DNA of 64,000 nucleotides from an uncultured Gemmatimonadales bacterium (GTDB taxonomy: Bacteria; Gemmatimonadota; Gemmatimonadetes; Gemmatimonadales; Gemmatimonadaceae), in contig CAWKNZ010000002.1 of NCBI GenBank assembly GCA_963851265.1, forward strand, positions 352,001-416,000. Reading direction: 5' to 3'. Positions 9,575 to 39,400 of the stretch are shown one piece after another. Positions within the stretch are counted from its first letter, which is position 1. Every line of letters begins with the position of its first letter. Position numbers and translations under genes: made by a program. The notes beneath the pieces were generated by a model, which saw only the letters and a list, made by a program, of their open reading frames with translations, did not search any database and had not been told where the DNA came from.

Positions 9575-10029
9575 GCCGGCAACTTATCCGATTGGCGTCG
9601 TCGCGGAGCCACGAAGGCGTCATCGACCGCGTCATCCCAGGCCGGAAAGATCGCTCGCCAGCGCTCGGGTACCGGGGTGGGACGCCCGTCGCGCGTGAGG
9701 CAGACGAAGGTGAGCGTGGCCGCCGCGTGGAGCCGACCGGTCACGGCGTGTCGCACGCTCTGCCGGATGGCGTAGCTCGTCCGGCCGATACGCAGCAGTC
9801 CCGAACGAATCACGAGGTCATCGCCCGGAACGCTCTGCCAGTCGTACGAGATGTCGACGTGGCGTACCACCGTCCACACCGCACCATGCGTGAGGTCGGC
9901 GAGCGAGATGGCCGGCTCGAGCAGCGCCCAGCGCGCGTGCTCGAGCAGGGTGATCATCGTGGCGTGGTTGACGTGCCCGAAAACGTCGCAGTCGCTCGGG
10001 TAGACGTGGTGCGTGATCTCGTGGGGCAT
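9571..10029 (-). CDS. Acyl-CoA thioesterase (4HBT/YbgC hotdog family)
   Basis: DCDVFGHVNHA motif. 4-nt overlap with the downstream gene. Confidence 0.88.
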   Translation of the reverse strand: MPHEITHHVYPSDCDVFGHVNHATMITLLEHARWALLEPAISLADLTHGAVWTVVRHVDISYDWQSVPGDDLVIRSGLLRIGRTSYAIRQSVRHAVTGRLHAAATLTFVCLTRDGRPTPVPERWRAIFPAWDDAVDDAFVAPRRRQSDKLPA

Positions 10030-10058
10030 GGGCGACGGGGATCGAATTCGGTGCGTGC

Positions 10059-22263: not shown

Positions 22264-24384
<2,121 letters not shown>

Positions 24385-24436: not shown

Positions 24437-24820
24437 ATGCGAAACCTAGTGTGGGCCGAGGTGGGGCTCGTGGCCGCGGGCGGGGCGCTCGGGTGCGTGT
24501 CGCGGTACGTCGCGGCGCTCGCGGCGGGCCCGGTGTCGGCGGGGTTTCCGTGGGGGACGTTCGCGATCAACGTCGTCGGGTCGTTCGTGCTCGGCGCGCT
24601 GCTCGGCGGGCTGCCGCCGGGGCACGCGGGGCGGTTGCTGTTCGGGACCGGATTCTGCGGCGGGTTCACGACGTTCTCGACGTTCAGTACGGAGGTCGTC
24701 GGGCTCGTCGAGCGCGGGGCGTGGGGGCGGGCCGGGGTGTACGCGGGCGGGAGCGTGCTGGCCGGCGTGCTGGCGGCGGCAGCCGGAATCGCGGTGGGGC
24801 GGGTGGTGGTGACGCGGTAG
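24437..24820 (+). CDS. crcB: Fluoride efflux channel Fluc/CrcB
   Basis: GGALG..RY, PWGTFAINVVGSF, TGFCGGFTTFSTFS. Confidence 0.93.
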   Translation: MRNLVWAEVGLVAAGGALGCVSRYVAALAAGPVSAGFPWGTFAINVVGSFVLGALLGGLPPGHAGRLLFGTGFCGGFTTFSTFSTEVVGLVERGAWGRAGVYAGGSVLAGVLAAAAGIAVGRVVVTR

Positions 24821-24917: not shown

Positions 24918-25727
24918 TTAGGCAGCCGCGGCGCGCAGTGCGGCCGCGGCGTGCGGTGCGGCCGCGACGACTTCGGCGGGGGCGGTGGTGCGGGCGCGGG
25001 CGGCTTCGGTTCGGGCGAGTTCGGTGAGGGCGTCGCGCATCGCGGATTCGCCGCCGAACTGGAAGCCGAGTTGCGAGGCGTAGGCGGCGCACGCGTCGAG
25101 CTTGGCGGCGAAGGCCGCCTCCGTGGGGTGGAGGGCGACGTCGACGAGATCGTGGGCGATAGGGTCGGGCGGAAGGGCGCCGGGGTGGCGGATGACGTAC
25201 GGGGTGTCGCGGTACCATGCCGTGGCGAGGGGGCGGCCGGCGGCGGCGCGGGTGTGCGCGATCTCGCGCACCGCGCGGACGACGTGCCGGTGGTCGGCGT
25301 GGCCGCCGATGGCCTGGGGAGCGAAGACGAGGGCGGGGGCGAGTTCGTCGACGAGCGCGGCGACGTCGGCTGCGACGGCGCGCCACGCGTCGGCGTCGGC
25401 GGGATGCACGCCGGCGAAGAGGGCGGCGGCGGAGTGGTAGCCGCGGTGCGGGGCCTCGGCGTGCGCGAGCCAGCGGACGGAGGCAGCGCCTAACGCACGC
25501 GCCGCCTCGGCGTCCTCGGCGCGGCGGAGGGCCATGTAGTCGACGTCGGCACCGAGGCCCTTGTCGGTCTGGCAGGCGAGGGCGAAGCCCCGCGGATCGG
25601 GGATGGAGCGGGTGAAGACGGTGACGAGGTGCGCGTCCCAGCCGCCCGCGGCGAGCGCGGCGAACGCGGCGCCGCAACTGAACGCGACGTCGTCGAGGTG
25701 CGGCGAGAGGAAGAGTGCGTTGGGCAC
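24918..25727 (-). CDS. PIG-L/LmbE (MshB/BshB-like) N-acetyl deacetylase
   Basis: LSPHLDD and GGHADH metal motifs, RRAED, YASQL. Last gene of the operon. Start approximate. Confidence 0.88.
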   Translation of the reverse strand: MPNALFLSPHLDDVAFSCGAAFAALAAGGWDAHLVTVFTRSIPDPRGFALACQTDKGLGADVDYMALRRAEDAEAARALGAASVRWLAHAEAPHRGYHSAAALFAGVHPADADAWRAVAADVAALVDELAPALVFAPQAIGGHADHRHVVRAVREIAHTRAAAGRPLATAWYRDTPYVIRHPGALPPDPIAHDLVDVALHPTEAAFAAKLDACAAYASQLGFQFGGESAMRDALTELARTEAARARTTAPAEVVAAAPHAAAALRAAAA

Positions 25728-25741
25728 GGCGGGCGGCGCGC

Positions 25742-26998
25742 TCAGAGTAGGTGCGGGGCGGCGCGGAAGCGGCAGGGGTCGATGGCGTCGTCGAACGGCC
25801 ACCACCGGTCGGGGCCGCGGTAGTCGCGCACGACCCGTGCGTACTCGCCGACGATCTGCCGCGCGATGGCGGGCCACGAATAGGTGGCGCGCACCTCCGC
25901 GAGGGCGGCGGCGGCGAGGCGCGCGCGGAGTGGGGCGTCGTCGAGGATGCGCGCGAGGGCGGCCGTGAGGGCGGGCACGTCGCCCGGGCCGACGAGCAAG
26001 CCGTTCTCGCCGTCGCGCAGACAGTCGACCACGCCCACGGTGCGGGTGCTGACGACGGCGAGTCCACTCGCCATCGCTTCGAGGATGGTGTTGCTGAACC
26101 CCTCGGCGTAGGTCGGGGAGACGAATACGTCGCCGCCGTGGTAGACGCGCGGCACGTCGTCGTACGCCGCGGGGCCGCGGAGCGTAACGCGGTCGGTGAG
26201 GCCGAGTTCGCGCGTGCGCTCGGCGACGGCGGCGGAGTCGGGGCCGATACCCGAGACGACGAGGCGCGCGGGGCGGCCGCCGCACGTCAGGGCGGCGAAT
26301 GCATCGAGCAGGTCGAGCGCGCCCTTGCGACGGTCGACGCGGCCGTGGTACACGAGCCGCGGCTCGTCGGGGTCGACGAGGGCGCCGGGGGTCCAGCCCC
26401 CGCGCGGGGTGAAGCGGGTGACGTCGACCGCACCGGGAACGATGGTGAGGCGGTCGAGCGCGACGCCGAGGTTGGCGTGCACCTCCTCGGCGAAGGAGCG
26501 GGCGCCGATGAGGAGGGCGTCGGCGTGGGCGAGGACGGCCTGCATGGCGCGGCGGTGGGTGCCGCAGCAGAGGCCGACCCAGTGCCCGTCGCCGCCCTGG
26601 ATGCTCACCACGACGGGGAGGCCGAGGCGGCGACCGGCTTCGAGGGCGGCGAAGCCGTTGGGGTAGCCGTACTGGGCGTGGAGGAGGTCGAAGGGGCGCT
26701 CGGCGTGGAGCCGCTCGACGAGGGCGACGCGGGTGTGGAGGTCGCGCTCGAAGTCGGCGGCGGCGCCGGCCGTCGCGGCGGCCTCGCCCGCGCTCTCGAC
26801 GCCGACCACGCGCACGCCGGCGACGGCCGGGGGCGGCCCGCCGCCGTAGACGGCGGTGCCGGCGGCGTCGGCGCGATAGTCGGAGAGCATGGTCACGTCA
26901 TGGCCTAACGCGACGAGCTCCCGCAGGAGGTTGGCGGCGTAGACGCTCATCCCCGAGACCGCGGGGAAGAAGCGGCGGGAGAGGAAGCAGACGCGCAT
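25742..26998 (-). CDS. Glycosyltransferase family 4 (MshA/BshA-like fold)
   Basis: MRVCFLSRRFFPAVSGMSVY, GRVDRRKG, EGFSNTILEAMASG (ExxxxxxxE). ATGA overlap with the upstream gene. Confidence 0.92.
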   Translation of the reverse strand: MRVCFLSRRFFPAVSGMSVYAANLLRELVALGHDVTMLSDYRADAAGTAVYGGGPPPAVAGVRVVGVESAGEAAATAGAAADFERDLHTRVALVERLHAERPFDLLHAQYGYPNGFAALEAGRRLGLPVVVSIQGGDGHWVGLCCGTHRRAMQAVLAHADALLIGARSFAEEVHANLGVALDRLTIVPGAVDVTRFTPRGGWTPGALVDPDEPRLVYHGRVDRRKGALDLLDAFAALTCGGRPARLVVSGIGPDSAAVAERTRELGLTDRVTLRGPAAYDDVPRVYHGGDVFVSPTYAEGFSNTILEAMASGLAVVSTRTVGVVDCLRDGENGLLVGPGDVPALTAALARILDDAPLRARLAAAALAEVRATYSWPAIARQIVGEYARVVRDYRGPDRWWPFDDAIDPCRFRAAPHLL

Positions 26999-27843
26999 CA
27001 GCCGCCGCGCTCGGCGGCTCTCAGGTACGCCAGCGCCCGCGGGACCATCTCGTGCGCGCGGTGCGAGTCGCGGGACAGCTCGACGGTGACCAGCCGGTCG
27101 AAGCCGATCGCGCCGAGCGCGGCGAGGACCGACGGGGTATCCATGTCGCCCTCGCCGAACGGAAGGTGCTCGTGTACGCCGCGGCGCATGTCCTCGACGG
27201 CGACGGTGCCGAGGTCGGCGCGGCACTCGCGGACGGCGGCGGCGGGGTCGCGGTCGCCGGTGACGAGGCAGTGGCCGGTGTCGAGGGCGAGGCGGAGGAG
27301 CGGGGCGGCGGTGCCTAACGTATCGCGGAGGCGGCGCCAGTCGTCGACGGTCTCGACCAGCATGCCGGGCTCGGGCTCGAGCGACGCGGCGACGCCGCGC
27401 TCGGCGGCGAGCGCGACCACCTCGGCCACGCCCTGCTCCAGCCACCCCCACGCCTCGCCGCGGTCGACGCCCGGCCGCGGGACGCCGGCCCAAAAGCTGA
27501 CGGTCTCGCCGCCGCACTCGGCGCAGACGTCGAGGCAGCGGCGGAGGAAGTCGACGCGGCGCGCGCGCCCCTCGGGCGACGGGGTGACGAGCGTGGGCTC
27601 GTGCTTCGCGCGCGGGTCGAGGAGGTAGCGCGCGCCGGTCTCGACGACGAGGCCGAGCCCGAGGTCGCGGAGGCGCCGGGCGAGGGCGCGCGCGCGGTCG
27701 CGGAAGTCGTCCGCGAACGGGTCCAGGTGGTGCACGTCCAGCGTGAGCGCGACGCCGTCGTACCCCGCGTCGGCGATGAACGCGAGCGCGTCGTCGAGGC
27801 GGTGGTGCGCGGTGCCGTTCGTGTTGTAGGCGTAGCGGAGCAT
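26998..27843 (-). CDS. Sugar phosphate isomerase/epimerase (xylose-isomerase-like TIM barrel)
   Basis: GYDGV, LEPEPG, LALDTGH, EDM...HEHLPFGEG, VELSR metal-binding pattern. Confidence 0.88.
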   Translation of the reverse strand: MLRYAYNTNGTAHHRLDDALAFIADAGYDGVALTLDVHHLDPFADDFRDRARALARRLRDLGLGLVVETGARYLLDPRAKHEPTLVTPSPEGRARRVDFLRRCLDVCAECGGETVSFWAGVPRPGVDRGEAWGWLEQGVAEVVALAAERGVAASLEPEPGMLVETVDDWRRLRDTLGTAAPLLRLALDTGHCLVTGDRDPAAAVRECRADLGTVAVEDMRRGVHEHLPFGEGDMDTPSVLAALGAIGFDRLVTVELSRDSHRAHEMVPRALAYLRAAERGG

Positions 27844-27846
27844 GGC

Positions 27847-29421
27847 CTAACGGGTTGCGGTGGCTGGCGCGTTCTCGGCCGCGGCGGCTGCGGCCGCGGC
27901 CGAGAACGCCAGGACGTGCTCGCCGGGCTCGCGGTAGAGGGCGTAGAGGCGGCCGAGCCGGCGTTCCGCCTCGGCGACGTCGAACCAGCCGCTGCCGCCG
28001 AGTTCGGCCTCGGCCTCGGCGGTGAGCGGCACGCGAGCGACGCCGTCGGGGAGGTCGAGGTTGCCGCCGTGGGCGTTGATCCCGCCGAGTCCGTCGCCGC
28101 GTTCGGCGAGGAGTTGGAGGCCGCGCGGGCCGACGCGGTGGTAGCTCATGCCCTCGACCTCGAGCTCGGGGACGAGCACCTTGACCGCGCGCGACGGCGC
28201 GCCCGGCGCGGTCACGTCGACGTACCACACCTGCAGCTCGTCGCGATCCAACCGTTCGGTGACGTCGGCGAGGAGGGCAGCGGGGTCGTCGAGCGCGCCC
28301 GCCGGGACGGTGGGCAGGTCGGAGAACGGAACGCGCCGCCGCACCGAGAGGACGGTGTCGCGGATCATCGCTACGACCGCGTCGGGGCCCTGGGCCATCA
28401 GGTCGCGCATCGCGGCGAGCGCGCGGCCCTCCTCGTCCCACCCGGGCGGGTTGCGTTCGAGCCGGGCGCGGTAGTCGTCGGGGAGCAGCGGCGAGACGAC
28501 GTCCCAGCGGTCGTGCGCGAAGCGCTTGCGCACCCGGCTCGAGCAGAATTCCAGCATGGCCTTGCGGAGTGCGCGCTCCCGGTCGGGGTGGGCGGCCTCG
28601 CCGCAGGCGGTGAGCATGATCGGGTGCGGCGCCCGGCGCGGGTCGCGTTCGCCGCCGACCACGTACACGTTCGCGATCCCGAACGCGGTGGAGGCGAGCT
28701 TGGGGAGGACCTCGATGCCCGCGGCGTCGAGCCGGGCGCGGAGGTCCCGGACGACGGGGTCGGTGACGGCGTCGAGGTCGATGGCGACGCCCTGGTCGAG
28801 GGCGCGGTAGGCGAGCGAGTTGCCGTCGCGCTGGACGAGCTCGAGCAGGCCGTGGGCGAGGGCGCGTTCGAGCGTGTCGCCCGCGCCCATGCCGTTGGTG
28901 ATGGGCGTGAAGAGCCACTCGCCGGGGCCGGTGTCGCCGACGTTGCTCGCCGCGTACTCGAGCGGGACCCAGCGGCGGGCGCCGTCGGGCCATCGCACCG
29001 CCTCGACCCACTGCAGCGGGCGGTCGTGCGTGTAGCCGGTCCCGACCGGGAGTCGGCACTCGAGCGGGTCGAGGGCGAGGGTGCCCGCGCGGCGGAGTTC
29101 GTTGTAGCTGCCCGACCGGCGCGGGAGCGACCGGAACGACGCGAAGGTGCTGTAGGTCTCGACCATCTCGCCTAACGCACTGGCGCGGGCGGTGTGGTCG
29201 TCCGCGCCGTACCCGACGCCGGTGAGGGCTATGTCGTCGGGGGTGAACGCGGCGGCGTAGTAGACCGGAACGTCGAGCACGTCAAGCGCGTGGAGCGGGA
29301 ACTCGTAGCGCTCGAAGTCCGGGGGGATGGTTGCCCGGTACGCGGCGGCGGCGCGGGCGAGGGGGGCGTCGGTCACAGGCACACGGTCTCGGGGCGACGT
29401 GAAGGGGAGTGGCGCGCTCAA
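27847..29421 (-). CDS. YcaO-like family ATP-dependent enzyme (stand-alone)
   Basis: GVGYG...ASALGEMVE, TNGMGAG, ALAHGLLELVQRDG, ACGEAAHPDRERALRKAMLE, VKVLVPELE. Start is TTG 29421 (overlapping the upstream TGA) or GTG 29382/29376. Confidence 0.85.
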   Translation of the reverse strand: MSAPLPFTSPRDRVPVTDAPLARAAAAYRATIPPDFERYEFPLHALDVLDVPVYYAAAFTPDDIALTGVGYGADDHTARASALGEMVETYSTFASFRSLPRRSGSYNELRRAGTLALDPLECRLPVGTGYTHDRPLQWVEAVRWPDGARRWVPLEYAASNVGDTGPGEWLFTPITNGMGAGDTLERALAHGLLELVQRDGNSLAYRALDQGVAIDLDAVTDPVVRDLRARLDAAGIEVLPKLASTAFGIANVYVVGGERDPRRAPHPIMLTACGEAAHPDRERALRKAMLEFCSSRVRKRFAHDRWDVVSPLLPDDYRARLERNPPGWDEEGRALAAMRDLMAQGPDAVVAMIRDTVLSVRRRVPFSDLPTVPAGALDDPAALLADVTERLDRDELQVWYVDVTAPGAPSRAVKVLVPELEVEGMSYHRVGPRGLQLLAERGDGLGGINAHGGNLDLPDGVARVPLTAEAEAELGGSGWFDVAEAERRLGRLYALYREPGEHVLAFSAAAAAAAAENAPATATR

Positions 29422-30341
29422 CCGGCGGTCACCACCCGTCCCGCGCCGTGCGCCGCCCGCCAGGCGCGCTCGGGCACGCGCTCGCCCGTGGGGGCGCCGC
29501 CAGGGCCTAACACGACGCGGTCGGTGAACGGGTGCGGGGCGGCGAGGGCCAGATCGAGTAGGGCGCGCGCGGCCGGCATGCCGCCCGCGCGCACGACCTC
29601 CCACGGCGTCACGACGACGGCGGCGTCGACCGGGGCGAGGGTGCGCGCGTAGCCGGCGATCTGCGCGCGGGTGAGCGGGAGGTCGGCGTCGAACGCGAGG
29701 TGGGTGCTCACGCTCGTCGCCGCGCCCGCGGCGTCGACGGTGAACTTGAACGCATCGCCGCAGAAGAGGGTGCGGCGGGCCCGGCCCGCGTGCGGCGCGT
29801 CGTCCCAGACGAGCGCGGTGTGGCCCGGCGTGTGGCCGCCCGTGTGGACGAGGGCGACGCCCGGCGCGAGGTCGGCGCGGTCGTCGAAGGCCCACGACAC
29901 CGGCAGCGCCTTGGCGAAGCCGAGGTCGTCGCGGTGGAGTACGAGTTCGGGCGAGAACCGTTCGCACACGCGCCAGAGCGCGCCGTAGACGTGCGGGTGC
30001 GAGGCGGCGGCCCAGCGCACGCCGCCCGCGTCGGCGATCGCGTCGAGCGCCGCGTCGTCGTACCAGCCGCACCCCTCGAACGCGACGTTGCCATGCGGCG
30101 TGCGCAGGAGATAGCCCGACGGGCCGATGCCGATGGCCGGGCTCGCCGTGACGGCGAGAACGTCGGGCAGCACCTCCTCGACCGCGCACCGCGAGCGGGC
30201 GGCCACCGCGGCGGCGGTCGTGAAGCGCCACCCGTCGTCGGGGAGCGGGTGGCGGAAGTCCTCGCAGACGGGGCAGGCGGCCGGGGCGAAGTGGCGCTGC
30301 CAGAAGCCGCAGTGCTCGCAGACGAAGTACGCGAGAGGCAT
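29418..30341 (-). CDS. Metallo-beta-lactamase-fold protein with N-terminal Cys4 (rubredoxin/Zn-ribbon-like) motif
   Basis: CEHCG...CPVCED, SHPHVYG, HTGGHTPGH, LFCGD. ATGA overlap with the upstream gene. Confidence 0.8.
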   Translation of the reverse strand: MPLAYFVCEHCGFWQRHFAPAACPVCEDFRHPLPDDGWRFTTAAAVAARSRCAVEEVLPDVLAVTASPAIGIGPSGYLLRTPHGNVAFEGCGWYDDAALDAIADAGGVRWAAASHPHVYGALWRVCERFSPELVLHRDDLGFAKALPVSWAFDDRADLAPGVALVHTGGHTPGHTALVWDDAPHAGRARRTLFCGDAFKFTVDAAGAATSVSTHLAFDADLPLTRAQIAGYARTLAPVDAAVVVTPWEVVRAGGMPAARALLDLALAAPHPFTDRVVLGPGGAPTGERVPERAWRAAHGAGRVVTAG

Positions 30342-31438
30342 CAGCGTGCCGCGGCCGCGGCCTCGTCGACCGCCCACCCGGGCGGCGCATCCACGCGCAC
30401 GAGTTCCTCGCGCCCACACGCCTCCACGAGCCGCATCGTGTGCAGGTCGCGCGCGGGCGGGAAGGGGAACGGCTCGCCGGCGAGCAGGCACCCCGCGAAC
30501 GTCTCGACCTGCGCGACGAAGGGCGACCGGTCCTCCTCGGCGAAGCTCGCGTCGCGCTCCACGCCGTCGAGACCGGTCAGCGTCAACCGGCCGCCGGGCG
30601 TTTGCCCCATCGTGTTGGTCGCGAGCGCGCGCCCGCGGTCGCCGATCACCTCCAGCTCGCGCCGGGGGAAGACGTCGGGGCGGTTGTAGGCGACCGTGAG
30701 GGAGACGAGCACGCCGCCGTCGGTGCGCGCCGTGATCACGGCGCCGTCGTCGACGGGGTAGTCGAAGACGCGTCGCTGGAGCAGGCAGGCCACCGTCGTG
30801 ACCGGTTCGGCGACGAGCATCTGCACGAGGTCGAGGCCGTGCGGCGCGAGGTCGATCATCGCCCCGCCACCCGCGCGCGCGGGGTCGACGCGCCAGTTGT
30901 CGTGCGCGTACTCGGCGGGCCGCCAATCGGGCGGCGTCCAGCAGGCGTAGTGGATGCGGACGCAGGTGACTGTGCCCAACGCACCGGCCGCGACGAGCGC
31001 GCGCAGACGGCGGTGCGCCGCGTGGAAGCGCTGGTCGAACGCGGTGGCGTACGCGACGCCCGCGGCGGCGCACGCGGCGACCATCGTCTCGGCCTCGCCG
31101 GCCGTCGGCGCCATGGGCTTCTCGCAGAGCACGGGCTTGCCGGCCGCGGCCGCCGCGCGGACGACCGCGCCGTGGCTGCTGTTGGGTGTCGCCACGTAGA
31201 CGGCGTCGACGGCGGGGTCGTCGAGCAGCGTGTCGAGGTGGAGGTGGCAGGTCGCGCCGGGCGCGAGTGCGCCGACGCGGCCGAGCGCGGCCGGGTCGCG
31301 GTCGCACAGCGCGACGATCTCGCCGTTGGTCGAGCCGCGGATCGCGGGCGCGACGTAGTCGCGCGCCACCCAGCCGCAGCCGACGACGCCCCACCCGATC
31401 GCAGGCGACGTTCCGCCCGCGTGCATTGGTACGCTCAC
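30341..31438 (-). CDS. Gfo/Idh/MocA family oxidoreductase (inositol dehydrogenase-like)
   Basis: WGVVGCGWVA, YVATPNSSH, VLCEKP, GGGAMIDLAPHGLD. GTG 31438 overlaps the upstream stop; ATG 31426 is an alternative. Confidence 0.92.
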   Translation of the reverse strand: MSVPMHAGGTSPAIGWGVVGCGWVARDYVAPAIRGSTNGEIVALCDRDPAALGRVGALAPGATCHLHLDTLLDDPAVDAVYVATPNSSHGAVVRAAAAAGKPVLCEKPMAPTAGEAETMVAACAAAGVAYATAFDQRFHAAHRRLRALVAAGALGTVTCVRIHYACWTPPDWRPAEYAHDNWRVDPARAGGGAMIDLAPHGLDLVQMLVAEPVTTVACLLQRRVFDYPVDDGAVITARTDGGVLVSLTVAYNRPDVFPRRELEVIGDRGRALATNTMGQTPGGRLTLTGLDGVERDASFAEEDRSPFVAQVETFAGCLLAGEPFPFPPARDLHTMRLVEACGREELVRVDAPPGWAVDEAAAAAR

Positions 31439-32472
31439 GCGTGGAGCCCGGCGGCCCGCAGCGCGGCGCGCTCGACCTCCTGGTTGGGCCCGGGGTGCAG
31501 GATGTCGAACGCGCCTCCGCGCTCGCCGAGAGCGGCGTCGAGGGTGAACGCCGCGGCGCGGGCGAACCACTCCATCTCGAAGACGCGGTCGAGTGCGTCG
31601 GCGGCGTGGAAGGCGCGTGCCTCGGGCGACCGCGTGTCGGGCGGGACGTCGAGGGCGTCCTCGACGGCGTCGCGCAGCTCGGGGGGCACGTGGGTGAGGG
31701 CGCGCTCGCGTAGCTCGGCCGAGAGCCCGGCGAGCGCGCCGCCCAGCGCGACGTCGGCCGCGTCGCCGGCGTCGGGAAGCCACGCGTTGGCGAGGTGGTG
31801 CGCGAGGCCGGCGAGGAACACGCGCGCGGGGTCGGCGTCGTACGCGGGCGCGACGAGCGCGCCGGTGACCGCCACGGCCCAGCAGTGCTCGGCATGGCTC
31901 TCCATGGGCACGAGCATCAGGCGCGGCGTGTCGGGGCGCGTGGGGCCCGCGCGCGGCTGCTCGGCGAGGAGCGCGACGAATGCGGGCACGGCGGCGTGCC
32001 CGACGCGGCTCGCGTAGCGCAGCAGCCCGGGGGCGATGTGCGCTTCGTCGGGGTGGCCGCCGTCGAGCGCCACCGTGCTCAGCAGCGCCTCGTACGGCGA
32101 CGGCCAGCCGGCCGCGTCGGCGGTGCCGCCGGCCGCGCGCTGCAGCGTGGCCGTCGCGGCGTCCCACCCGCGGCGGAGGACGTCCGCCGCCCGGTCGGCC
32201 GCCACGCGCTCGGCGCGCAGAAACTCCGTGTCGATGGCGCCGAGGCGGGTGGCGATGACGGCGCTCCCGAGTTCGGCCTGCACGACCTCGTCCGGCGTCT
32301 CGCCGGCGGCGAGGGCGCCCCAGGCACGCGCGAAGGCGCGCGCGGCCCACGAGCCCGCGCGCCCGGCCGCGTGCACGCGCTTGAGCGTGTTGCACTCGCG
32401 CGCGAGCGGGACGAGCGCGGTCAGGTGCGGGCCGACCGCGGCCTCGTGGGGCGGATCGTGGGTGGAGTGCAC
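31435..32472 (-). CDS. HD-domain-like protein (YfbR-like, variant motif)
   Basis: PRAG...ESHAEH...LAHHL...PD...ADALD matches the YfbR-type HD layout with HH in place of HD. Degenerate N-terminal half. Confidence 0.6.
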   Translation of the reverse strand: MHSTHDPPHEAAVGPHLTALVPLARECNTLKRVHAAGRAGSWAARAFARAWGALAAGETPDEVVQAELGSAVIATRLGAIDTEFLRAERVAADRAADVLRRGWDAATATLQRAAGGTADAAGWPSPYEALLSTVALDGGHPDEAHIAPGLLRYASRVGHAAVPAFVALLAEQPRAGPTRPDTPRLMLVPMESHAEHCWAVAVTGALVAPAYDADPARVFLAGLAHHLANAWLPDAGDAADVALGGALAGLSAELRERALTHVPPELRDAVEDALDVPPDTRSPEARAFHAADALDRVFEMEWFARAAAFTLDAALGERGGAFDILHPGPNQEVERAALRAAGLHA

Positions 32473-32478
32473 GCCGGC

Positions 32479-33936
32479 TCAGCGCGCCGAGGCCGCCGGC
32501 GCCGTCGCGACGGGCCCGCGATCGTCGAGGGGGATCATGCCGTGCCCGTTCGCCTGCCCGTTCGCGTGCCCGTCGCCTCTCTCATGCGCGTGCGCAGTCG
32601 CGGGGGCGTCCGCGCGCGCGTCGCCCTGCGCGGGCTCGCCGGCGAGCCACGCGACGAGGCGGCGCTGCTGCTCGGGGAAGGCGTGCTCCGGCGTCGCGCC
32701 TAACACCTTCGTCCCGGGCTGCTTGAAGAAGACGCCGAGCTGCTCCTGAACGCCGCCCTGGCCGCGGCGCCGCGCAAGGTCGAGCGTGCGCGCGATCTCG
32801 ATGACGAGTGGGGCGGCGAGGATCGAGTCCTTGCAGAGGAAGTTCAGCTTGAGCTGCATCTTCTGCCCGAGGAAGCCCTCGACGTCGATGGTGTCCCAGG
32901 CCTCCTTGTTGTCGCCGCGCGGGCGGTAGTACTCGATGGTGACGACGTGGTCCTCGACGGGGTAGCCGAGGATGCCGTCGAGCACCGAGCCTTTGGTGCC
33001 GAGCTTGGACGAGAGCGAGTCCTTGTCGCGGAGGGCGAGCCCGTCGCGGTTGCCGAGGATGTTGTGCGAGTACCAGCCCTCGACGTGCAGCGCGCGGTCG
33101 CGCAGCGCGGGGGCGATCACGGTCTTCACGAACGTCTGACCGGTCTTGCCGTCCTTGCCGATGACGGGCACGCCGCGCTGCTCGGCCAGCTCCACGAGCG
33201 CGGGGACGTCGACGGCCACGCTCGGCGTGAAGTTGCCGTAGGGCACGCCCTCGCGGATGGCGGCGTACGCGTAGAGCACCGCGGGGTTGAGTGCGTCATC
33301 GTCGCGGTCGAGCGCGGCCTCGAAGCCGGCGGCCGTGGCGAAGGCGGGCGCGGTGACGTCGGGGCGGGCCTCGGTGGAGGCGAGGTTGATCATCACGACA
33401 TCGTCGAGCTGCTGCTCGGCGCGGAAGCGGCACAGGTCGGCGCGGATCGCGTCGACCGCCGCGCGGGCGGTGCCGGCGTCGACGCGGTGGCCGAAGCGGT
33501 CGCCGTCGATGTTGCGGCAGTACTTGGTGGAGCCGACGGCGGGCCACGGGCGGAGCGCGGCCAGGGCGTCGCGCGCGGCGTCGAGTTGGTCGCGGTCGAG
33601 GACGCGGTGCGTGGCCGCGGCGGTGGCGAGGTCGGACCCGTCGAGGTCCCAGCCGCCGAACGCGAGGTCTGCGTACGGCGCGAGCTGCGCCGTGAGGGCG
33701 TCGGGGAGGGCGGCCAGGGGCAGTCCGGTGGTGCCCGCGGCGCCGGCCCCGAGTAGCGCGATGCCGGCCACGGCGGTGGTCGCGACCGCGCCGCCGAGCC
33801 CTACGATCGCGATGCCGAGGCGCCCGGGCCGGCGTGCGCCCACCGGCGCGCCGTGATTGCTGCTGTCAGTTGCCGTACCACGCGCCGTGCTACGGTGTGC
33901 CGTACTACGGTCCTGCGGGTGCGTTCCGTTCTGCAT
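32479..33936 (-). CDS. ino1: Inositol-3-phosphate synthase (MIPS/Ino1)
   Basis: GLGGAVATT, GGWD, INLASTE, NFTPS, GKDGKTGQT, NILGNRDG, DNKEAWD, CKDSILAAP, FFKQP. Strong SD GGAGGAGGAGG before ATG 33936. Confidence 0.93.
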   Translation of the reverse strand: MQNGTHPQDRSTAHRSTARGTATDSSNHGAPVGARRPGRLGIAIVGLGGAVATTAVAGIALLGAGAAGTTGLPLAALPDALTAQLAPYADLAFGGWDLDGSDLATAAATHRVLDRDQLDAARDALAALRPWPAVGSTKYCRNIDGDRFGHRVDAGTARAAVDAIRADLCRFRAEQQLDDVVMINLASTEARPDVTAPAFATAAGFEAALDRDDDALNPAVLYAYAAIREGVPYGNFTPSVAVDVPALVELAEQRGVPVIGKDGKTGQTFVKTVIAPALRDRALHVEGWYSHNILGNRDGLALRDKDSLSSKLGTKGSVLDGILGYPVEDHVVTIEYYRPRGDNKEAWDTIDVEGFLGQKMQLKLNFLCKDSILAAPLVIEIARTLDLARRRGQGGVQEQLGVFFKQPGTKVLGATPEHAFPEQQRRLVAWLAGEPAQGDARADAPATAHAHERGDGHANGQANGHGMIPLDDRGPVATAPAASAR

Positions 33937-34058
33937 GTCCTCCTCCTCCTCCGCGTCCCCACCCGGCCGCGCGCGCCGCCCGTTCGACGGCGCGGGGCGG
34001 GTCGAATGGACGGTACGCGGGCAGCGGTCGGCCACTCCGATCGCCGTGGCGGGGGGGT

Positions 34059-34074
34059 AGCAAGGCACGTTCCG
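34059..34074 (-). promoter_or_regulatory. Putative sigma54 (-24/-12) promoter of the ino1-YcaO operon
   Basis: Minus strand CGGAACGTGCCTTGCT: GG-N10-GC with ACG and TTGCT, about 120 nt upstream of ino1. Confidence 0.45.
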
Positions 34075-34187
34075 CCATCGCCCCGCGCCGTGTAGCGTAC
34101 GGCGTTCTTCCCGTGGTTTTTATTGCGTGCCGCCCCGCGGGAACCGTTGGCGGCGTCGACGACATTCTCCCTTCTGCCCGCGTTCTC

Positions 34188-35549
34188 GTGACCGATCTCA
34201 CGGCGTATTTCGACGCGCACGCCGAGCGTGCGCGCGCCGAGCTGTTCGATTTCCTGCGCATCCCGAGCGTGAGCGCGCGCTCCGAGCACGATGCCGACAC
34301 TCGGCGCGCGGCCGAGTGGGTGCGCGCGTCGCTCGAGTCCGCCGGGCTGCAGGCTTCGGTGCACGAGACGGCGGGCCACCCGATCGTGCTCGGCGAGTGG
34401 CGCGGCGCGGCGGGCGCGCCGACGCTGCTCGTCTACGGCCACTACGACGTGCAGCCGGCCGAGCCGCTCGAGCTGTGGGACTCGCCCGCGTTCGAACCCG
34501 CGGTGCGCGACGGGCGCATCTATGCGCGCGGATCGGTGGACGACAAGGGGCAGCTGTTTCTCCACGTGAAGGCGCTCGAGGCGCATCTGGCCGCGACCGG
34601 CGCGCTGCCGGTGAACGTGATCGTGCTGGCCGAGGGCGAGGAGGAGGTGGGGAGCGAGCACCTCGCCGAGTTCATCCGCGCGCACGCCGATCGGCTCGCG
34701 TGCGACGCGGTGGTGATCTCCGACTCGACGATGTTCGCGCCGGGCATTCCCAGCATCCTCAGCTCGTTGCGCGGGCTGGCGTACTTCCAACTCGACGTCC
34801 AGGGGCCGAGCGGCGACCTGCATTCGGGGATGTACGGCGGGGCCGTGGTGAACCCGGCGATGGCGCTCGCGCGCATCCTCGCCACGTTCCACGACGCCGA
34901 CGGGCGGATCGCGATCCCGGGCTTCTACGATGCGGTGCGCGCCTGGCCGGCGTCGGTGCGCGAGCAGATGCGCGGGCTGCCGTTCGACGAAGGCGAGTTC
35001 CGCGCCGGCGTGGGCGCTCCGGCGTTAGGCGGCGAGCCGGGCTACTCGGTGCTCGAGCGGCTCTGGACGCGGCCGACGTGCGAGGTGAACGGGCTGCTGT
35101 CGGGGTACACGGGCGAGGGCGCCAAGACGGTGCTGCCGGCCACGGCGATGGCGAAGGTCAGCTGCCGCCTGGTGCCCGACCAGGACCCGGAGGAGATCGC
35201 GCGGTTGGTGCAGGCGCACGTGGAGCGGGTCGCGCCGGCGGGGGTGACGGTCGCCGTGCGGCACCTGCACGGCGGTCGGCCGTGGCGGGCGGATCTGGAG
35301 GGGCCCCTGTTCGACGCGGCGAAGCGTGCGCTCGCGGCGGAGTTCGGGCGCGAGCCGGTGGTGACCGGCGAGGGCGGGTCGATCCCGGTGGTCGGCGACT
35401 TCGCGGAGATCCTCGGCGCGCCGGTGTTACTCGTGGGGTTCGGGCTGCCGGGCGAGAACGCGCACGCGCCTAACGAGTGGATCTCGGTGGAGAACTTCGA
35501 GAAGGGGATGCGGGCGATGGCGCGGCTGTATACCGAATACGGGCGGTGA
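34188..35549 (+). CDS. M20 family dipeptidase
   Basis: YGHYDVQP, ARGSVDDKGQ, EGEEEVGS, DLHSG, GGSIP, AHAPNE. Confidence 0.92.
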   Translation: MTDLTAYFDAHAERARAELFDFLRIPSVSARSEHDADTRRAAEWVRASLESAGLQASVHETAGHPIVLGEWRGAAGAPTLLVYGHYDVQPAEPLELWDSPAFEPAVRDGRIYARGSVDDKGQLFLHVKALEAHLAATGALPVNVIVLAEGEEEVGSEHLAEFIRAHADRLACDAVVISDSTMFAPGIPSILSSLRGLAYFQLDVQGPSGDLHSGMYGGAVVNPAMALARILATFHDADGRIAIPGFYDAVRAWPASVREQMRGLPFDEGEFRAGVGAPALGGEPGYSVLERLWTRPTCEVNGLLSGYTGEGAKTVLPATAMAKVSCRLVPDQDPEEIARLVQAHVERVAPAGVTVAVRHLHGGRPWRADLEGPLFDAAKRALAAEFGREPVVTGEGGSIPVVGDFAEILGAPVLLVGFGLPGENAHAPNEWISVENFEKGMRAMARLYTEYGR

Positions 35550-35634: not shown

Positions 35635-36321
35635 TCAACGCGCCGCCTTGCGGCTGAACGTCCCGAACACCAGATCCCACAACGGCGAACTCACGCCGTA
35701 GTCCTCGTCGGCGTCGACGTAGTGGTGCCGCGCGTGACGCTTCTTGAGGTAGCGCCCCCAGCGCGTCGGCAGCCCCTGGTGGTGCACGGCGTAGTGGATC
35801 GTGTCGTAGAACAGGTAGCCCGTCACGAACCCCGCGAACGCCCCGAGCTCGGCCGCGCCGAAGATGAGGCGGAACAGCGCGAAGAAGAGGATCGCGAGCG
35901 GGATGCTCGCGCCCGGCGGCATCACGAGACGCGTCGGCTCGCTCGGCGCGACGTGATGCACGCCGTGACCGACGAAGTAGGCGAGGTGCTTCCACGACGG
36001 CATGCGCGGGATCGCCGCGTCGCCGGGGGCGAGCGACTCGACCACCGCGTGCGTCTCGTTCATGATGTCGTCCGGCCAGTGAAAGACGAACCGGTGCATC
36101 AGGTACTCGGTCAGCGTCCAGAGCAGCAGGCCGATGACGAAGAGCAGCGCCGTCCGCGCAGGGGCGGTCGGGGCGAGCCAGAGACACCCCGCGACGACCG
36201 GCACATAGAGCAGGTGCGGCACCCACGGCTGCACGTGGGTGAGGCGCTCCATGAAATCGCTTCGGAACATCCGGACCGTGGCAACCCCGGTCGTGGTCCC
36301 GGCAGAACGGGCGTCGCGCAT
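35635..36321 (-). CDS. Fatty acid hydroxylase / sterol desaturase family protein (FA2H/Scs7-like)
   Basis: His boxes EYLMHRFVFH, HGVHH, HYAVHH, HARHH. RLVMPP and YGVSSPLWD motifs. Confidence 0.88.
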   Translation of the reverse strand: MRDARSAGTTTGVATVRMFRSDFMERLTHVQPWVPHLLYVPVVAGCLWLAPTAPARTALLFVIGLLLWTLTEYLMHRFVFHWPDDIMNETHAVVESLAPGDAAIPRMPSWKHLAYFVGHGVHHVAPSEPTRLVMPPGASIPLAILFFALFRLIFGAAELGAFAGFVTGYLFYDTIHYAVHHQGLPTRWGRYLKKRHARHHYVDADEDYGVSSPLWDLVFGTFSRKAAR

Positions 36322-36465
36322 GGCAACTCTCCGACGATGGGGGAGGCCGCGCGTCGTGCAACGGCCCCTGGTGGCTGCCCGCAAGTTACGGACGACCAGC
36401 CCGGGGCCGCCACTGCACCCGTCCTCTGGACCCGATCTCTGGACCCGTCGTCGGGCCCGCCCGCG

Positions 36466-39400
36466 TCAGAACCGCCAGACGCGGACGAGGTAGATACCGA
36501 GCGCGCTGTTGGGGTCGATGGTCTGCGGCGCGAGCGTGGGCTGCATGAGGAAGTACCGCGGCGCCGACACGGCCTCGAGTGAGACGTTGGGCGACCTGGG
36601 GAAACGGTACTGTACGCGGAAGCCGGGCACCGGCGGCTTGGCGGCCCAGAACTCGGGCACCGTCTGCAATCCGACGTACAGGTTGCGGCTGAGGTACTTG
36701 CCGAACTCGATCTGCGTGCCGGTGAGGAACGTCTGCAGCCCCGACTGACTCGACCCGTTGGACTGTTCGGGGGCGAGCTCGCCGCCCGGGGTGATGTTGA
36801 TGACGTCGGCGCCGAGCGACCGGCCGAGCTCGGCCTGGGCCTGCTTCACGCCGATACCGACGGCCGCGCCGACCAGGCGCTGCTGGATGACGGCCGCAGC
36901 CGCGCCCACGGGCGACGCGCCGGTCGAACTCGTCGTGAGGCTCGACCCCCCGATCACCGGGAGTGAACCCGTAGGGTTGCCGAACGCGAGATAGCTCAGC
37001 AGGTCGGTCTGCGGGATCGGCGGCTGCGCGTCGCTCTCGAGCGCGATCTTGGGCGCGAGCAGCGTGCCGCCGATGATGATGCGGATCGCGAGCGGCGAGC
37101 GGCCGACCTGCGCGACCTCGTACTCGGCCGTGATCTGGACGTTGGGGTCGAGCTCCTGCGTGCCGACGAACGTGGCCGCGCCGCGGCGGATCTGGAAGCG
37201 TTTGGAGGAGAATTCGTACTCGCCGCGCTCGACGTCCACGACGCCGTCGACGACGAGCGCCTGGCGCGCGTTGTCGGCGCGCACGCGCAGGGCCCCGTCG
37301 CTGAAGATCTCGACGTTGGCCGTGGTGCCCTGGCGCACCCACGTATCGCGGTCGATGGCGACCGAGACGTCGGCCTGCAGGCTGTCGAGCACCGTCGGCG
37401 CGGTCGACACGAGTACCCCGGCCGCGCCGGGCGGGGCGACGCGCGTCGCCCCGCGGCGCGTCGTGTCGATCACGGCGAACACCGCCGGGTCGTTGGCCGA
37501 GAGCGTCTGCGTGGTGGTGGTGGCCGGGACGTAGATGGTGCCGCCGAGTACGCGCGCGCTGCCGGTGACGAGGAGGTGACTGAGCCGGCCCGCGATCGCG
37601 AGTCGGCCGTCCGCGTCGATGCGGCCCTGCTGATCGTCGAGCAGGCGGGCGCGGTTGGCGACGAACGTGAGGTCGAGTGTCGGGTCGGCGGGGGTGGTGA
37701 TCCCGACGCCGCCGGCGAGGCGCAGGGTGCCGCCGCCCGCCCGCGCCGCGACGGAGTCGACGACGAGCGTGTCGCCGCGCAGGTGGACCGCACCGGCGAG
37801 ATTCTGCAGCAGGGCGCCGGTCGAGACGAGGCGGAGCTGCGCGCCGCGCACGGTGACGTCGCCGGTGACGTCGGGCTTCTTCACCGTGCCGCGGATGGCG
37901 ACCGTCCCGTTGGCGGCGCCGCGGACTTCGGTGACCGACTCGGTGAAGCGCTCCGCGAGATCGAGTGGGAGCGAGTCGAGGCGGACGTCGGCCGTGACCG
38001 GGGCCGTGTCGGCGAGACGCGGCGTGGTGACCGCGCCGCCGCCCGGCGCCTGCAGTGCGAGGTTGATGGGCACCGTGGCCGTCGCGTCGAGGATCGGGCG
38101 CCGCCCGGTCGCGACCTGCGTGGTGTCGACGCGCACGCGGCGCGGGCCCAGGATCCCGAGGAACTTGCGCCGCCCGTACGTCGTGTCGACGACGAGGCCG
38201 TACGCGACGTTGGCGACCGCGTGTGCGCCGAGGCGCTGGTCGGCGTAGTCCGCCGAGGCGCTGAGGTCGGGGACGCTCGTGCCGCGGTAGGTGGCCCTGG
38301 TGAGGGCCGCCTCGGCCTTGAGGAGCGGGGCGGTTTGCGTACCCGTGAGGTGCGCGTCGAGCGAGACGAGGCCGCGGAACGGCACGTCGCTCTCGACGAT
38401 GCCCAGCGCATCGGCGACCTCGAAGTTGGTCACGCCGACGCGGAGGTCGACCGGGCCGGTGCTCGGCAGCCTGCCGTCGACGGCGATGCGACCGCCGAGG
38501 CCGTTGGCCAGATCCAGACCGAGGATCTCGAGCCCGCGCGGGCCGTAGCGCACCGCGCCTGGCTGCGTGGCCGCGTAGACGACCGTGTCGAAACGCAGGC
38601 GCAGGTCGGCGAAGCGCAGCTCCTTGCGGTCGCCGAGGATCGCGTAGTCGGCGCGCGCGTTGTACGAACGGCCGGTCTCCTGGAAGATCGCCACCTGCGC
38701 GGTCCCGCCCTGGCCGCGGTAGGTGCCGCGCACGTCGGCGCTGTCGAGCGCGAAGCCGCTCGCGAGGATCGAGTCGGCGGAGAGGCCGAAGGCGAGCGCG
38801 CCGTCGGCGGTGCTGGGGCCGCCGAGCCAGGTGTAGGCGACCCGCGCGCGGCGCACCGAGCTGCCGAGCGCGGTGAGGCCTTCGGCGCCGGCGCGCCCGC
38901 GGAGGTCGAAGCGTTTGATGTTGCCGGCGACGGTGCCCGCCGCGTAGACGGCGCCCGCGAGCGAGTCGCGGCGCACCGTCTTGAGGGTGTCGGGCGCGCG
39001 CAGGCGGACGACTTCCGAATCGCCGGCCGCGACGGCGACGGCGGTGCGGCGGAAGTGGGCCGCGCTGTCGGCGCGGGCCTGCGCGGTCAGGCGGGCGTTG
39101 AGCCCGGGCCGCGGCGCGACGGCCCCGGTGTCGCGCGGCAGGTAGCGGGCGAACGCGCCCAACGAATCGACGTTGGCGCGGTAGGAGAGCGTGCCGGTGC
39201 GGCCGGCCACGAGTCCGAAGCTCCCGGCCGCGTCGAGGGCGGCGCGCGGGGCGCGCACGGCGAGCGTGTTGACCGTGAGCACCCCCGCGCCGACGCCGAG
39301 TCGCGCGCGGAGCGAATCGACCGCGGCCGTATCGACCCGGAGGTCGTGCAGGTCGGCGGCGAGGGTGGCCTGCGCGGTGGCCGGGTCGGTGCCGCGCCCG

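Follow-up and report, generated by a model that had tools for sequence, protein, structure and literature searches.

A putative cyclitol–aminosugar gene cassette shared by four bacterial phyla pairs a YcaO protein with a metallo-β-lactamase-fold protein and may point to small-molecule YcaO chemistry

What does a YcaO protein do among genes for inositol and aminosugar metabolism? YcaO enzymes have been studied as modifiers of peptide backbones, where they form azolines, thioamides or amidines. The stretch of DNA analyzed here (hereafter, the window) comprises 64,000 nucleotides of the genome of an uncultured soil bacterium of the Gemmatimonadales (assembly GCA_963851265.1, contig CAWKNZ010000002.1, positions 352,001–416,000) and contains an operon of eight translationally coupled genes on the minus strand (24918–33936), the fifth gene of which encodes a YcaO. 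An initial annotation of the window proposed that the operon directs a mycothiol-like pathway, in which the YcaO modifies an inositol–aminosugar compound rather than a ribosomal peptide. We compared the operon with related loci and examined its products by profile and structure searches. The explanation that we favor, with somewhat more confidence than doubt, is that this is a mobile operon for a modified cyclitol–aminosugar, in which the YcaO and a metallo-β-lactamase (MBL)-fold protein would use ATP to activate a carbonyl of a small molecule, not of a peptide.

The G+C content of the window is approximately 75%, and raw lists of its open reading frames (ORFs) are crowded with false frames. 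The eight consecutive genes were singled out by G+C content at third codon positions (GC3), which in the assigned frames is mostly 0.87–1.00 per 30-codon segment. It falls to 0.67–0.84 only in the segment at the 3′ end of each gene and in the first two segments of the first gene, and it is 0.33–0.77 where the assigned frames extend upstream of their starts across the neighboring gene. In the order of transcription, the operon encodes a myo-inositol-phosphate synthase (MIPS) paralog (g1, 32479–33936, 485 aa), an HD-domain protein (g2, 31435–32472, 345 aa), a Gfo/Idh/MocA NAD(P) oxidoreductase (g3, 30341–31438, 365 aa), a protein with a Zn-ribbon and an MBL fold (g4, 29418–30341, 307 aa), the YcaO (g5, 27847–29421, 524 aa, with a TTG start), a xylose-isomerase-like TIM barrel (g6, 26998–27843, 281 aa), a retaining glycosyltransferase of family GT4 (g7, 25742–26998, 418 aa) and a de-N-acetylase of the PIG-L/LmbE family (g8, 24918–25727, 269 aa). 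All except g4 pass a Pfam gathering score. A purine-rich, ribosome-binding-like sequence with a long GGAGG run, GGAGGAGGAGGAGGA (33938–33952, minus strand), lies 1 nt before the ATG of g1. From g1 to g8, the junctions are a 6-nt gap, GTGA, TGATG, TTGA, a 3-nt gap, TGATG and a 14-nt gap; in the TTGA, the start codon of g5 overlaps the stop codon of g4. GC3, Pfam and fold evidence thus bear out the eight co-oriented genes of the initial annotation, and the sequence agrees with its GTGA overlap at 31435–31438 and its gaps of 6 nt (g1/g2) and 3 nt (g5/g6), whereas the overlaps at 30341 and 26998, which it had given as ATGA, are 1-nt TGATG overlaps. The TTGA overlap (g4/g5) and the 14-nt gap (g7/g8) were absent from that annotation.

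A YcaO-based search with one genome per species returned 26 loci. In 10 of them, a cassette-type YcaO is accompanied by the operon neighbors, while the other 16 are solo YcaO loci, all of them actinobacterial. The cassette loci belong to Gemmatimonadales and Gemmatirosa (L001–L003), Hymenobacter (L004 and L005), Rubricoccaceae of the phylum Rhodothermota (L006), and Lewinellaceae, Saprospiraceae and Neolewinella (L007–L009 and L025). All eight genes are present in seven of these 10 loci, in six of them in the order of the window and in L004 with the GT4 and PIG-L genes moved upstream; L002, L003 and L005 are incomplete because they are cut by contig ends. Saprospiraceae-type loci contain a ninth gene, for an S-adenosylmethionine-dependent methyltransferase, between the HD and Gfo genes, and the nine-gene form recurs in the same order in both Geodermatophilaceae loci analyzed and in seven of eight loci from an Actinomycetota sample. 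The operon of the window is the eight-gene form, and the methyltransferase was not found elsewhere in the host genome (4.6 Mb in 12 contigs, 94.4% complete) with the L009 protein as the query. The cassette is therefore carried in Gemmatimonadota, Bacteroidota, Rhodothermota and Actinomycetota, and since identical genes stand in an identical order in four phyla, the grouping exceeds chance. The co-occurrence of YcaO with ino1, GT4 and PIG-L genes in other genomes, on which the initial annotation had staked its proposal, holds for the cassette-type YcaO in all four phyla.

We found no flanking gene outside the cassette that is common to different phyla, so the cassette is self-contained. Its distribution is patchy: it was absent from all 250 further Gemmatimonadota genomes searched and present in 2 of 100 further Hymenobacteraceae genomes, 11 of 400 further Actinomycetota genomes and 15 of 81 Geodermatophilaceae genomes. 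In a FastTree phylogeny of 23 YcaO sequences, rooted on the second YcaO of the host (a ThiF–YcaO fusion, too distant for the root to be leaned on), the eight-gene forms from Gemmatimonadota, Rubricoccaceae and Hymenobacter grouped, together with Solirubrum and two fusion proteins, with a support of 0.97, which conflicts with species relationships. We read the cassette as a mobile accessory gene set, the eight-gene form of which would have lost the methyltransferase. Two loci had unusual frames. In L007, from a Lewinellaceae metagenome-assembled genome (MAG), the HD protein and the methyltransferase form a single 757-aa ORF (5446–7719), which may be a true fusion or may result from a frameshift in the assembly. 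The YcaO gene of L025, on a Saprospiraceae chromosome, is split into two frames (9980–10960 and 11054–11470), as in a pseudogene or after a long-read indel error.

g5 contains a full-length YcaO domain (PF02624, 206.3 bits, profile positions 2–325 of 325). It scored above the cut-off of TIGR00702, named "YcaO-type kinase domain" (93.1 bits vs 75.65), and below those of the SagD-type TIGR03604 (119.7 bits vs 219.25) and the methan_mark_1 equivalog (86.6 bits vs 365). E85, E88, E194 and R198, which may correspond to the ATP/Mg ligands of E. coli YcaO, are invariant in 39 YcaO sequences, but in the E-x2-E-R-D stretch the second Glu is replaced with Q197. The clade of g5 has the motifs TNGMGAGD and ELxQRDG, an inserted CGEAA in which Cys is invariant, and a C-terminal LYxLYREPxxH. 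The best solved relative is the methanogen thioamide YcaO MJ1094 (6pe3, E = 6.3e-13; also 6peu), and that of M. kandleri (6ci7) matched at 4e-6. These closest solved proteins likewise stand alone without an E1-like domain, but their substrate, modified with or without TfuA, is the protein McrA, whereas the cassette YcaO has sugar genes as neighbors and an MBL-fold protein as its partner, fused to it in some lineages. The clade also differs from them in the Q for E in ELxQRD, in the CGEAA insert and in the YREPxxH C-terminus. As far as motifs and gene context tell, the cassette YcaO is without the defining features of thiazole/oxazole-modified microcin (TOMM), thioamitide-type and McrA-type systems.

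The host genome encodes two YcaOs. The other one is an 814-aa fusion of ThiF (E1-like) and YcaO on another contig (C8:162991–165435; also placed as locus L033:4992–7436, plus strand), outside the window. It ends in PHPHP, in contrast to the LYxLYREPxxH of g5, which is without a proline-rich end. The fusion is the usual peptide-cyclodehydratase architecture and points to a separate cluster of the RiPP type (peptides that are made on ribosomes and modified post-translationally), as far as its domain organization goes.

The partner of g5 is probably g4. This protein had no Pfam match over the gathering score. C8, C11, C23 and C26 (Zn-ribbon), H115, H117, H170, D196 and H214 are invariant in an alignment of 40 sequences. 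Its AlphaFold2 (AF2) model has a mean predicted local distance difference test (pLDDT) score of 93.3 and matched B3 lactamases in Foldseek with E = 2e-9, the best template modeling (TM) score being 0.78 to 2p97; relatives of g4 and fusion proteins that contain it match PF00753 (Lactamase_B). The binuclear HxHxDH motif of MBLs, the numbering of which presumably applies to g4, is incomplete, with only S114-H115-x-H117 invariant and DH missing. In every cassette, g4 lies directly upstream of YcaO. A YcaO of the g5 clade is encoded in 25 of the 81 Geodermatophilaceae genomes: 15 score 327–371 bits (cassette-type), all with g4 within approximately 170 nt, and 10 score 236–256 bits (solo-type), none with g4 at E ≤ 1e-10. 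The two types never occur together in one genome.

Furthermore, g4 and YcaO are fused in some proteins. YcaO relatives at E ≤ 1e-10 numbered 851, and several of their clusters are 757–865 aa long. Among the four long clusters checked, P0284, P0274 and P0259 have g4 fused N-terminally to YcaO. Residues 1–324 of P0284 align to g4 (45% identity) and residues 317–791 to YcaO (47%); P0259 is 66% identical to g4, and its residues 390–741 make up a full YcaO domain; and both Lactamase_B and YcaO are matched in Pfam by P0284 and P0274. Read-through errors are an unlikely cause of these fusions because one cluster of this length represents 30 sequences. Given the fusions and the strict adjacency, g4 is probably a working partner of the g5 YcaO. 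Complex prediction from the YcaO and g4 alignments returned a score of 0.00 in two runs, which is no verdict and was counted neither way. A comparable precedent is bottromycin PurCD, an amidine-forming YcaO that works with the amidohydrolase PurAH. There too, a YcaO that lacks an E1-like partner is joined by a metal-dependent protein with a hydrolase fold, but the pair acts on a ribosomal peptide and the partner has a different fold; no fusion of the PurCD/PurAH type is known to us.

Another apparent fusion, P0142, was considered as MIPS–HD and set aside, since it contains only MIPS fragments (28 and 21 bits) and is probably a miscalled or broken gene. Distant g4-like Zn-ribbon MBL paralogs (78–97 bits, 32–34% identity) were observed in four Geodermatophilaceae genomes (G017, G008, G043 and G066), and a fifth, G059, has one as a second copy; such paralogs occur in this family without any YcaO of the g5 clade. 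In G729, a similar paralog is located on a different contig from the YcaO.

The 16 solo loci come from Klenkia, Kineococcus, Modestobacter, a Jatrophihabitantaceae MAG and one MAG labeled Janthinobacterium. None of the other seven cassette genes was found within 10 kb of their YcaO genes. In five solo-type genomes, the YcaO is the sole one of its type, g2 was found in none with the queries used here, and g4 was not found save for a chance-level match in G004 (E = 0.004). Instead of cassette genes, 14 of the 16 loci have a sugar importer of the CUT1 type, consisting of a substrate-binding protein (SBP) and two permeases; it was missing at L012, a 2.3-kb contig, and at L017. The importer is directly upstream and co-directional in Kineococcus and L021, convergent in Klenkia and approximately 2.6 kb off in L014, and the Kineococcus SBP resembles oligosaccharide binders. 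The solo YcaOs form a single clade (support 1.0 in the FastTree phylogeny), and they have I or V at the site of the invariant Cys, which is Cys in all 20 cassette-type loci and in L044. The solo set is one evolutionary split and not 16 independent events.

L044 (5116–18325 in G553, from the Actinomycetota sample) is a one-strand operon of the sugar-utilization type, in which YcaO starts 3 nt after two permease genes. It encodes, in order, an aldo-keto reductase (AKR), an SBP, two permeases, YcaO, a CE4 deacetylase, a GH2 glycosidase, a second SBP, a further permease and a regulator of the LacI type. A search of this genome for g4 was negative. Its SBP is only 22% identical to that of Kineococcus, so we regard L044 as a second, separate association of YcaO with sugar uptake. 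Every context found for the g5 YcaO clade is carbohydrate-related, which argues for a small-molecule substrate of the sugar type and is the strongest argument for it after the synteny. Within one family, the cassette and the solo YcaO with its importer exclude each other, as might be expected of a metabolite that some bacteria produce and others import. A "conserved 265-aa neighbor" of the actinobacterial YcaOs (P0003) was rejected as an antisense-frame artifact of the ABC permease gene. At L010 (11520–12317), this antisense frame is a long ORF with a GC3 of 0.97 that is conserved in tblastn across 17 further loci, a caution against calling ORFs from GC3 alone in high-GC DNA.

As for the remaining cassette enzymes, g1 matched PF07994 (199 bits) and PF01658 (111 bits), both over the cut-off, and its best solved relative is the inositol-3-phosphate synthase 7nwr (E = 4.8e-78; 1u1i, 1.2e-59), as compared with only 5.4e-14 for the five-membered cyclitol-phosphate synthase 6k96. 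The host has two MIPS genes: in the genome search, g1 scored 183 bits, matching only profile positions 70–320, vs 326 bits for the copy at C2:993333–994550. By these scores, g1 is a dedicated, more divergent MIPS paralog. It belongs with the archaeal/eukaryote-like MIPS proteins and not with those of the actinobacterial type, and it reached 38.1 bits against the mycothiol-type Ino1 equivalog TIGR03450 (cut-off 638). g7 matched PF13692 (118 bits) and PF00534 (108 bits), and it scored 95.3 bits against the MshA equivalog TIGR03449 (cut-off 462.5) and 95.8 bits against BshA, far under the cut-off; its E-x7-E stretch EGFSNTILE is presumably the GT4 motif. g8 matched PF02585 (66.5 bits), and its translation contains PHLDD and HADH, which we assume to provide metal ligands.

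g2 matched HD_3 (26.8 bits vs a cut-off of 22.5). According to its AF2 model (pLDDT 92.2), an extra N-terminal helical domain occupies residues 1 to approximately 157, and residues 158–315 match HDDC2 (4dmb, Z 13.2), YfbR (2paq, Z 12.6) and OxsA (5tk6, Z 12.1) in VIA-align. These matches suggest that g2 is probably the pathway phosphatase, with an MshA2-like role. The HD dyad is HH (H225 and H226) in 37 of 37 sequences, so the H...HD...D ligand set is not complete, and H193, H196, H289, D292 and D295 are also invariant, which is more His and Asp than a simple phosphatase needs. Since the Foldseek matches were weak (best E = 0.1) and the structural matches listed are HD proteins of the phosphohydrolase type, a MIOX-like ring-cleaving oxygenase was dropped as the first choice for g2, although with so many invariant His and Asp residues g2 may yet have such a role; neither MIOX nor PhnZ was among the 50 structural matches listed.

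g3 matched PF01408 (92.8 bits) and PF22725 (97.2 bits), and its best solved relatives are 1,5-anhydro-D-fructose reductase (2glx, 1.2e-36) and DgpA (7xr9, 3.6e-22). Inositol dehydrogenases matched at approximately 1e-14, and the IolG score was 108 bits (cut-off 355); g3 is thus closer to 1,5-anhydrofructose reductase and to glycoside and C-glycoside 3-dehydrogenases than to inositol dehydrogenases. g6 matched PF01261 (AP_endonuc_2, 133.9 bits), with IolE (9zmu, 2.7e-6) and L-ribulose 3-epimerase (3vyl, 3.2e-6) as weak solved relatives. It may be of the dehydratase, eliminase or epimerase type, weakly resembling IolE and ketose 3-epimerases. Gfo/Idh/MocA proteins and xylose-isomerase-like TIM barrels recur as oxidize-then-eliminate pairs, namely IolG/IolE, DgpA/DgpBC and LgdA/LgdB. 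g3 matches IolG, levoglucosan dehydrogenase, glycoside 3-dehydrogenases and DgpA, and g6 matches IolE, but the scores are far under the equivalog cut-offs; the known pairs are catabolic, whereas g3 and g6 stand beside synthetic genes.

Is this, then, mycothiol biosynthesis (Ino1, MshA, MshA2, MshB, MshC and MshD)? The front end follows the same glucosamine (GlcN)–inositol logic, with MIPS, GT4, phosphatase-type and PIG-L/LmbE proteins, and to that extent the mycothiol-like label of the initial annotation stands. However, the cassette adds the Gfo/Idh/MocA protein, the TIM barrel, the MBL-fold protein, YcaO and often the methyltransferase, its genes are gathered in one operon, and its MIPS is of another type. 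MshC was not found in the 94.4% complete host genome, the only match scoring 270.8 bits against a cut-off of 485.1, and the same search was positive in 14 of 14 control genomes, which is a behavior like that of cysteinyl-tRNA synthetase (CysRS). None of the cassette proteins reached an NCBIfam equivalog cut-off for mycothiol or bacillithiol synthesis (including MshA, Ino1 and BshB), and MshD was not among their Pfam assignments, no search having been aimed at it. Judging from these profile scores, the cassette is not for mycothiol biosynthesis, and the label is too narrow.

From the families of the enzymes, we propose the following pathway. The dedicated MIPS paralog would form an inositol phosphate, to which the GT4 protein would attach an N-acetyl-hexosamine; the HD protein would then strip the phosphate, and the PIG-L protein would liberate the sugar amine. 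The Gfo/Idh/MocA protein and the TIM barrel, as an oxidize-then-eliminate or oxidize-then-isomerize pair, could produce a keto or enone ring, which would be an electrophile for the amine released by PIG-L. YcaO, with its MBL partner and ATP, would phosphorylate the carbonyl oxygen of an amide or a vinylogous amide, after which an N, S or O nucleophile would replace it or close on the carbon to give an amidine, an imine, a thioamide or a closed ring. Our preferred guess for the YcaO substrate is a vinylogous amide between the sugar amine and the oxidized ring, because the cassette offers neither an aminotransferase nor an obvious stable amide. The main alternative reaction would be thioamide formation, since the nearest relatives form thioamides and the invariant Cys goes along with the MBL partner. 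That the cassette has a GT4 and its own second copy of MIPS favors synthesis over breakdown. Most likely, the compound serves as a protectant, either kept inside the cell or shared, and actinobacteria with a solo YcaO may take up and finish, recycle or degrade such a compound.

We regard one more specific version as doubtful, although worth following. It states that a two-part enzyme of YcaO and Zn-ribbon MBL protein, which would be the first YcaO family with a non-peptide small molecule as its substrate, closes or aminates a glucosamine–cyclitol ring to give a UV or desiccation protectant with a conjugated C=N chromophore, with cassette carriers as producers, with related solo-YcaO actinobacteria as scavengers that import the compound and finish or recycle it, and with methylobamine possibly a member of the group. 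In the mycosporine-like amino acid pathway, a cyclitol synthase and an O-methyltransferase are followed by an ATP-grasp enzyme and a non-ribosomal peptide synthetase or a D-Ala-D-Ala-ligase-like enzyme. What the two have in common is a cyclase acting on a sugar phosphate, a methyltransferase (in the cassette, that of the nine-gene form) and an enzyme that could use ATP to make C–N from a ring carbonyl; in the cassette, however, the cyclase is MIPS and not of the dehydroquinate synthase type, YcaO stands in place of ATP-grasp, and an aminosugar is attached. Hymenobacter, Geodermatophilus and Rubrobacter, which are among the carrier genera, are radiation- or sun-exposed genera, many carriers belong to genera known to tolerate radiation or desiccation, and given the many carriers in such genera the product may be a new protectant. 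Methylobamine is a gene-unlinked compound from Methylobacterium. A review describes it as a UVA absorber in which a pyrano-oxazine and an iminoacetic acid part are combined with a galactopyranose and five additional carbons in linear arrangement. On that description, the link is a lead only, as neither its sugar nor its number of carbons is readily matched to GlcN and a six-carbon cyclitol.

Rather improbable, in our view, is that the YcaO clade departs from the classical conversion of amides to heterocycles and instead phosphorylates an aminosugar–cyclitol as an ATP-dependent kinase, or cleaves its N-acyl bond at the expense of ATP, mainly in salvage or catabolism, with the cassette serving turnover or remodeling and not the making of a finished natural product. 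A sugar kinase is usual at the slot after SBP–permease–permease, and it is this slot that YcaO occupies in the solo operons; L044 adds CE4, GH2, AKR and LacI genes to the picture, the TIGR00702 "kinase domain" score is above its cut-off, the breakdown of sugars and inositol typically involves pairs of Gfo and TIM-barrel enzymes, and a YcaO has reportedly been found to cleave an amide in an ATP-dependent manner. Against this, the dedicated MIPS paralog and the GT4 are synthetic and not degradative, the cassette contains neither an importer nor a regulator, and the absence of genomes with both YcaO forms among the 81 Geodermatophilaceae fits a division between making and taking.

We consider it improbable as well that YcaO and the MBL protein modify a peptide or protein encoded at a distance, or a cassette protein, in the style of McrA or ribosomal-protein thioamidation, with the sugar genes decorating the product or merely being co-regulated. 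The nearest solved and curated relatives are protein thioamide YcaOs (MJ1094 and methan_mark_1, with the scores given above), and a far-off precursor gene is possible. To our knowledge, all characterized YcaOs act on peptides or proteins, and among the matches listed, the YcaO literature of 2021–2026 deals with these substrates, barring two stray word matches and one study of E. coli siderophore output. However, the operon leaves no room for a precursor gene, as successive genes overlap by up to 4 nt or are at most 14 nt apart, and ORFs of at least 20 aa in the gaps of the other cassette loci are neither conserved nor plausible as precursors. TfuA gave no match in the host genome, with M. acetivorans as a positive control, and Pfam detected no ThiF/E1-like gene in the cassette; nor is there a RiPP recognition element partner, a proline-rich end on g5 or an additional gene conserved beside the cassette across phyla. 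The clade is known from three independent gene contexts, and each of them is related to carbohydrates.

A glycolipid seems very improbable. The cassette would here make a head group of the GlcN-phosphatidylinositol (PI) type, with the GT4 protein acting like PIG-A, PIG-L as a GlcNAc-PI deacetylase and the other enzymes tailoring the head group. PIG-A and PIG-L catalyze the first steps of glycosylphosphatidylinositol (GPI)-anchor synthesis, PF02585 is named after the GlcNAc-PI de-N-acetylase, and g7 weakly matched N-acetylglucosaminyl phosphatidylglycerol synthase (66 bits vs a cut-off of 480). Nevertheless, no CDP-alcohol phosphatidyltransferase or other lipid gene is present in or near the cassette in any phylum, and an HD protein of the phosphohydrolase type beside MIPS suggests removal of the phosphate. 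Least credible of all is a true mycothiol-like low-molecular-weight thiol, with YcaO replacing the ligase MshC or installing sulfur: the front-end logic, the thioamide-forming relatives, the invariant Cys in CGEAA and the frequent handling of thioesters and persulfides by MBL-fold enzymes speak for it, but the MshC-profile match is CysRS-like, the MshA, Ino1 and BshB scores are far under the cut-offs, neither TfuA nor another sulfur-delivery gene was found, there is no cysteine-adding enzyme, and Actinobacteria, which already make mycothiol, carry the cassette additionally.

Several points weigh against the cyclitol–aminosugar pathway that we favor. The roles rest on family membership, with no enzyme reaching an NCBIfam equivalog cut-off, and in g2 the HH that replaces the HD dyad makes the phosphatase role insecure. 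Given what characterized YcaOs do, the prior favors a peptide or protein substrate, possibly encoded elsewhere. There is no obvious amide other than the N-acetyl group that PIG-L can remove and no aminotransferase, so the YcaO substrate is a guess. The solo YcaOs are without the MBL protein and have I or V in place of Cys, and the two groups may be functionally different. Finally, Gfo/TIM-barrel pairs, importers, CE4 and GH2 typically belong to catabolic pathways. For the initial proposal of a cyclitol–aminosugar pathway with a non-RiPP YcaO, the synteny, the missing room for a precursor and the negative TfuA search are thus favorable, while its chemistry is read from enzyme families. The initial annotation had not recognized g4 as the likely partner of YcaO, the nine-gene form, the ino1 gene as a second, divergent copy or the sister YcaO clade beside sugar importers.

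What is new here is the MBL–YcaO pairing and the solo-YcaO/importer lineages, which strengthen the small-molecule case; a small-molecule role is likely. We found no description of the cassette or of a sugar or small-molecule YcaO substrate in the literature, publication elsewhere, e.g., in supplements or subscription journals, being possible. A search joining YcaO with inositol gave no account of such a pathway by title or abstract start, and one joining YcaO with metallo-β-lactamase gave nothing relevant. If the explanation is true, the chemistry of the YcaO superfamily would widen to small molecules, with its own partner protein, and enzymology would gain an ATP-driven carbonyl conversion on a sugar-type scaffold. 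The cassette is compact (eight or nine genes), self-contained and present in cultured, harmless bacteria of soil, rock and the sea, which should make heterologous expression uncomplicated.

The operon is flanked by a divergent M20 peptidase gene (33834–35549) and a convergent crcB (24437–24820), as the initial annotation had it. A consensus scan for promoters and terminators gave no promoter-like site and one terminator-like site, outside the operon; these numbers did not exceed those of shuffled sequences and are uninformative at 75% GC. A gene of the fatty-acid hydroxylase family lies beyond the peptidase gene (35635–36384, minus strand). The M20 peptidase, crcB and fatty-acid hydroxylase genes were considered as cassette members and rejected, as their synteny extends to no locus other than L001, a close relative. 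Just past crcB, a minus-strand gene (22264–24384) encodes a 706-aa protein with an N-terminal DUF255 thioredoxin-like domain (258 bits). On the other side, a 2210-aa ORF (36466–43098, minus strand) has a C-terminal TamB domain and weak DUF748/YhdP matches, and it probably encodes a TamB/AsmA-like envelope protein.

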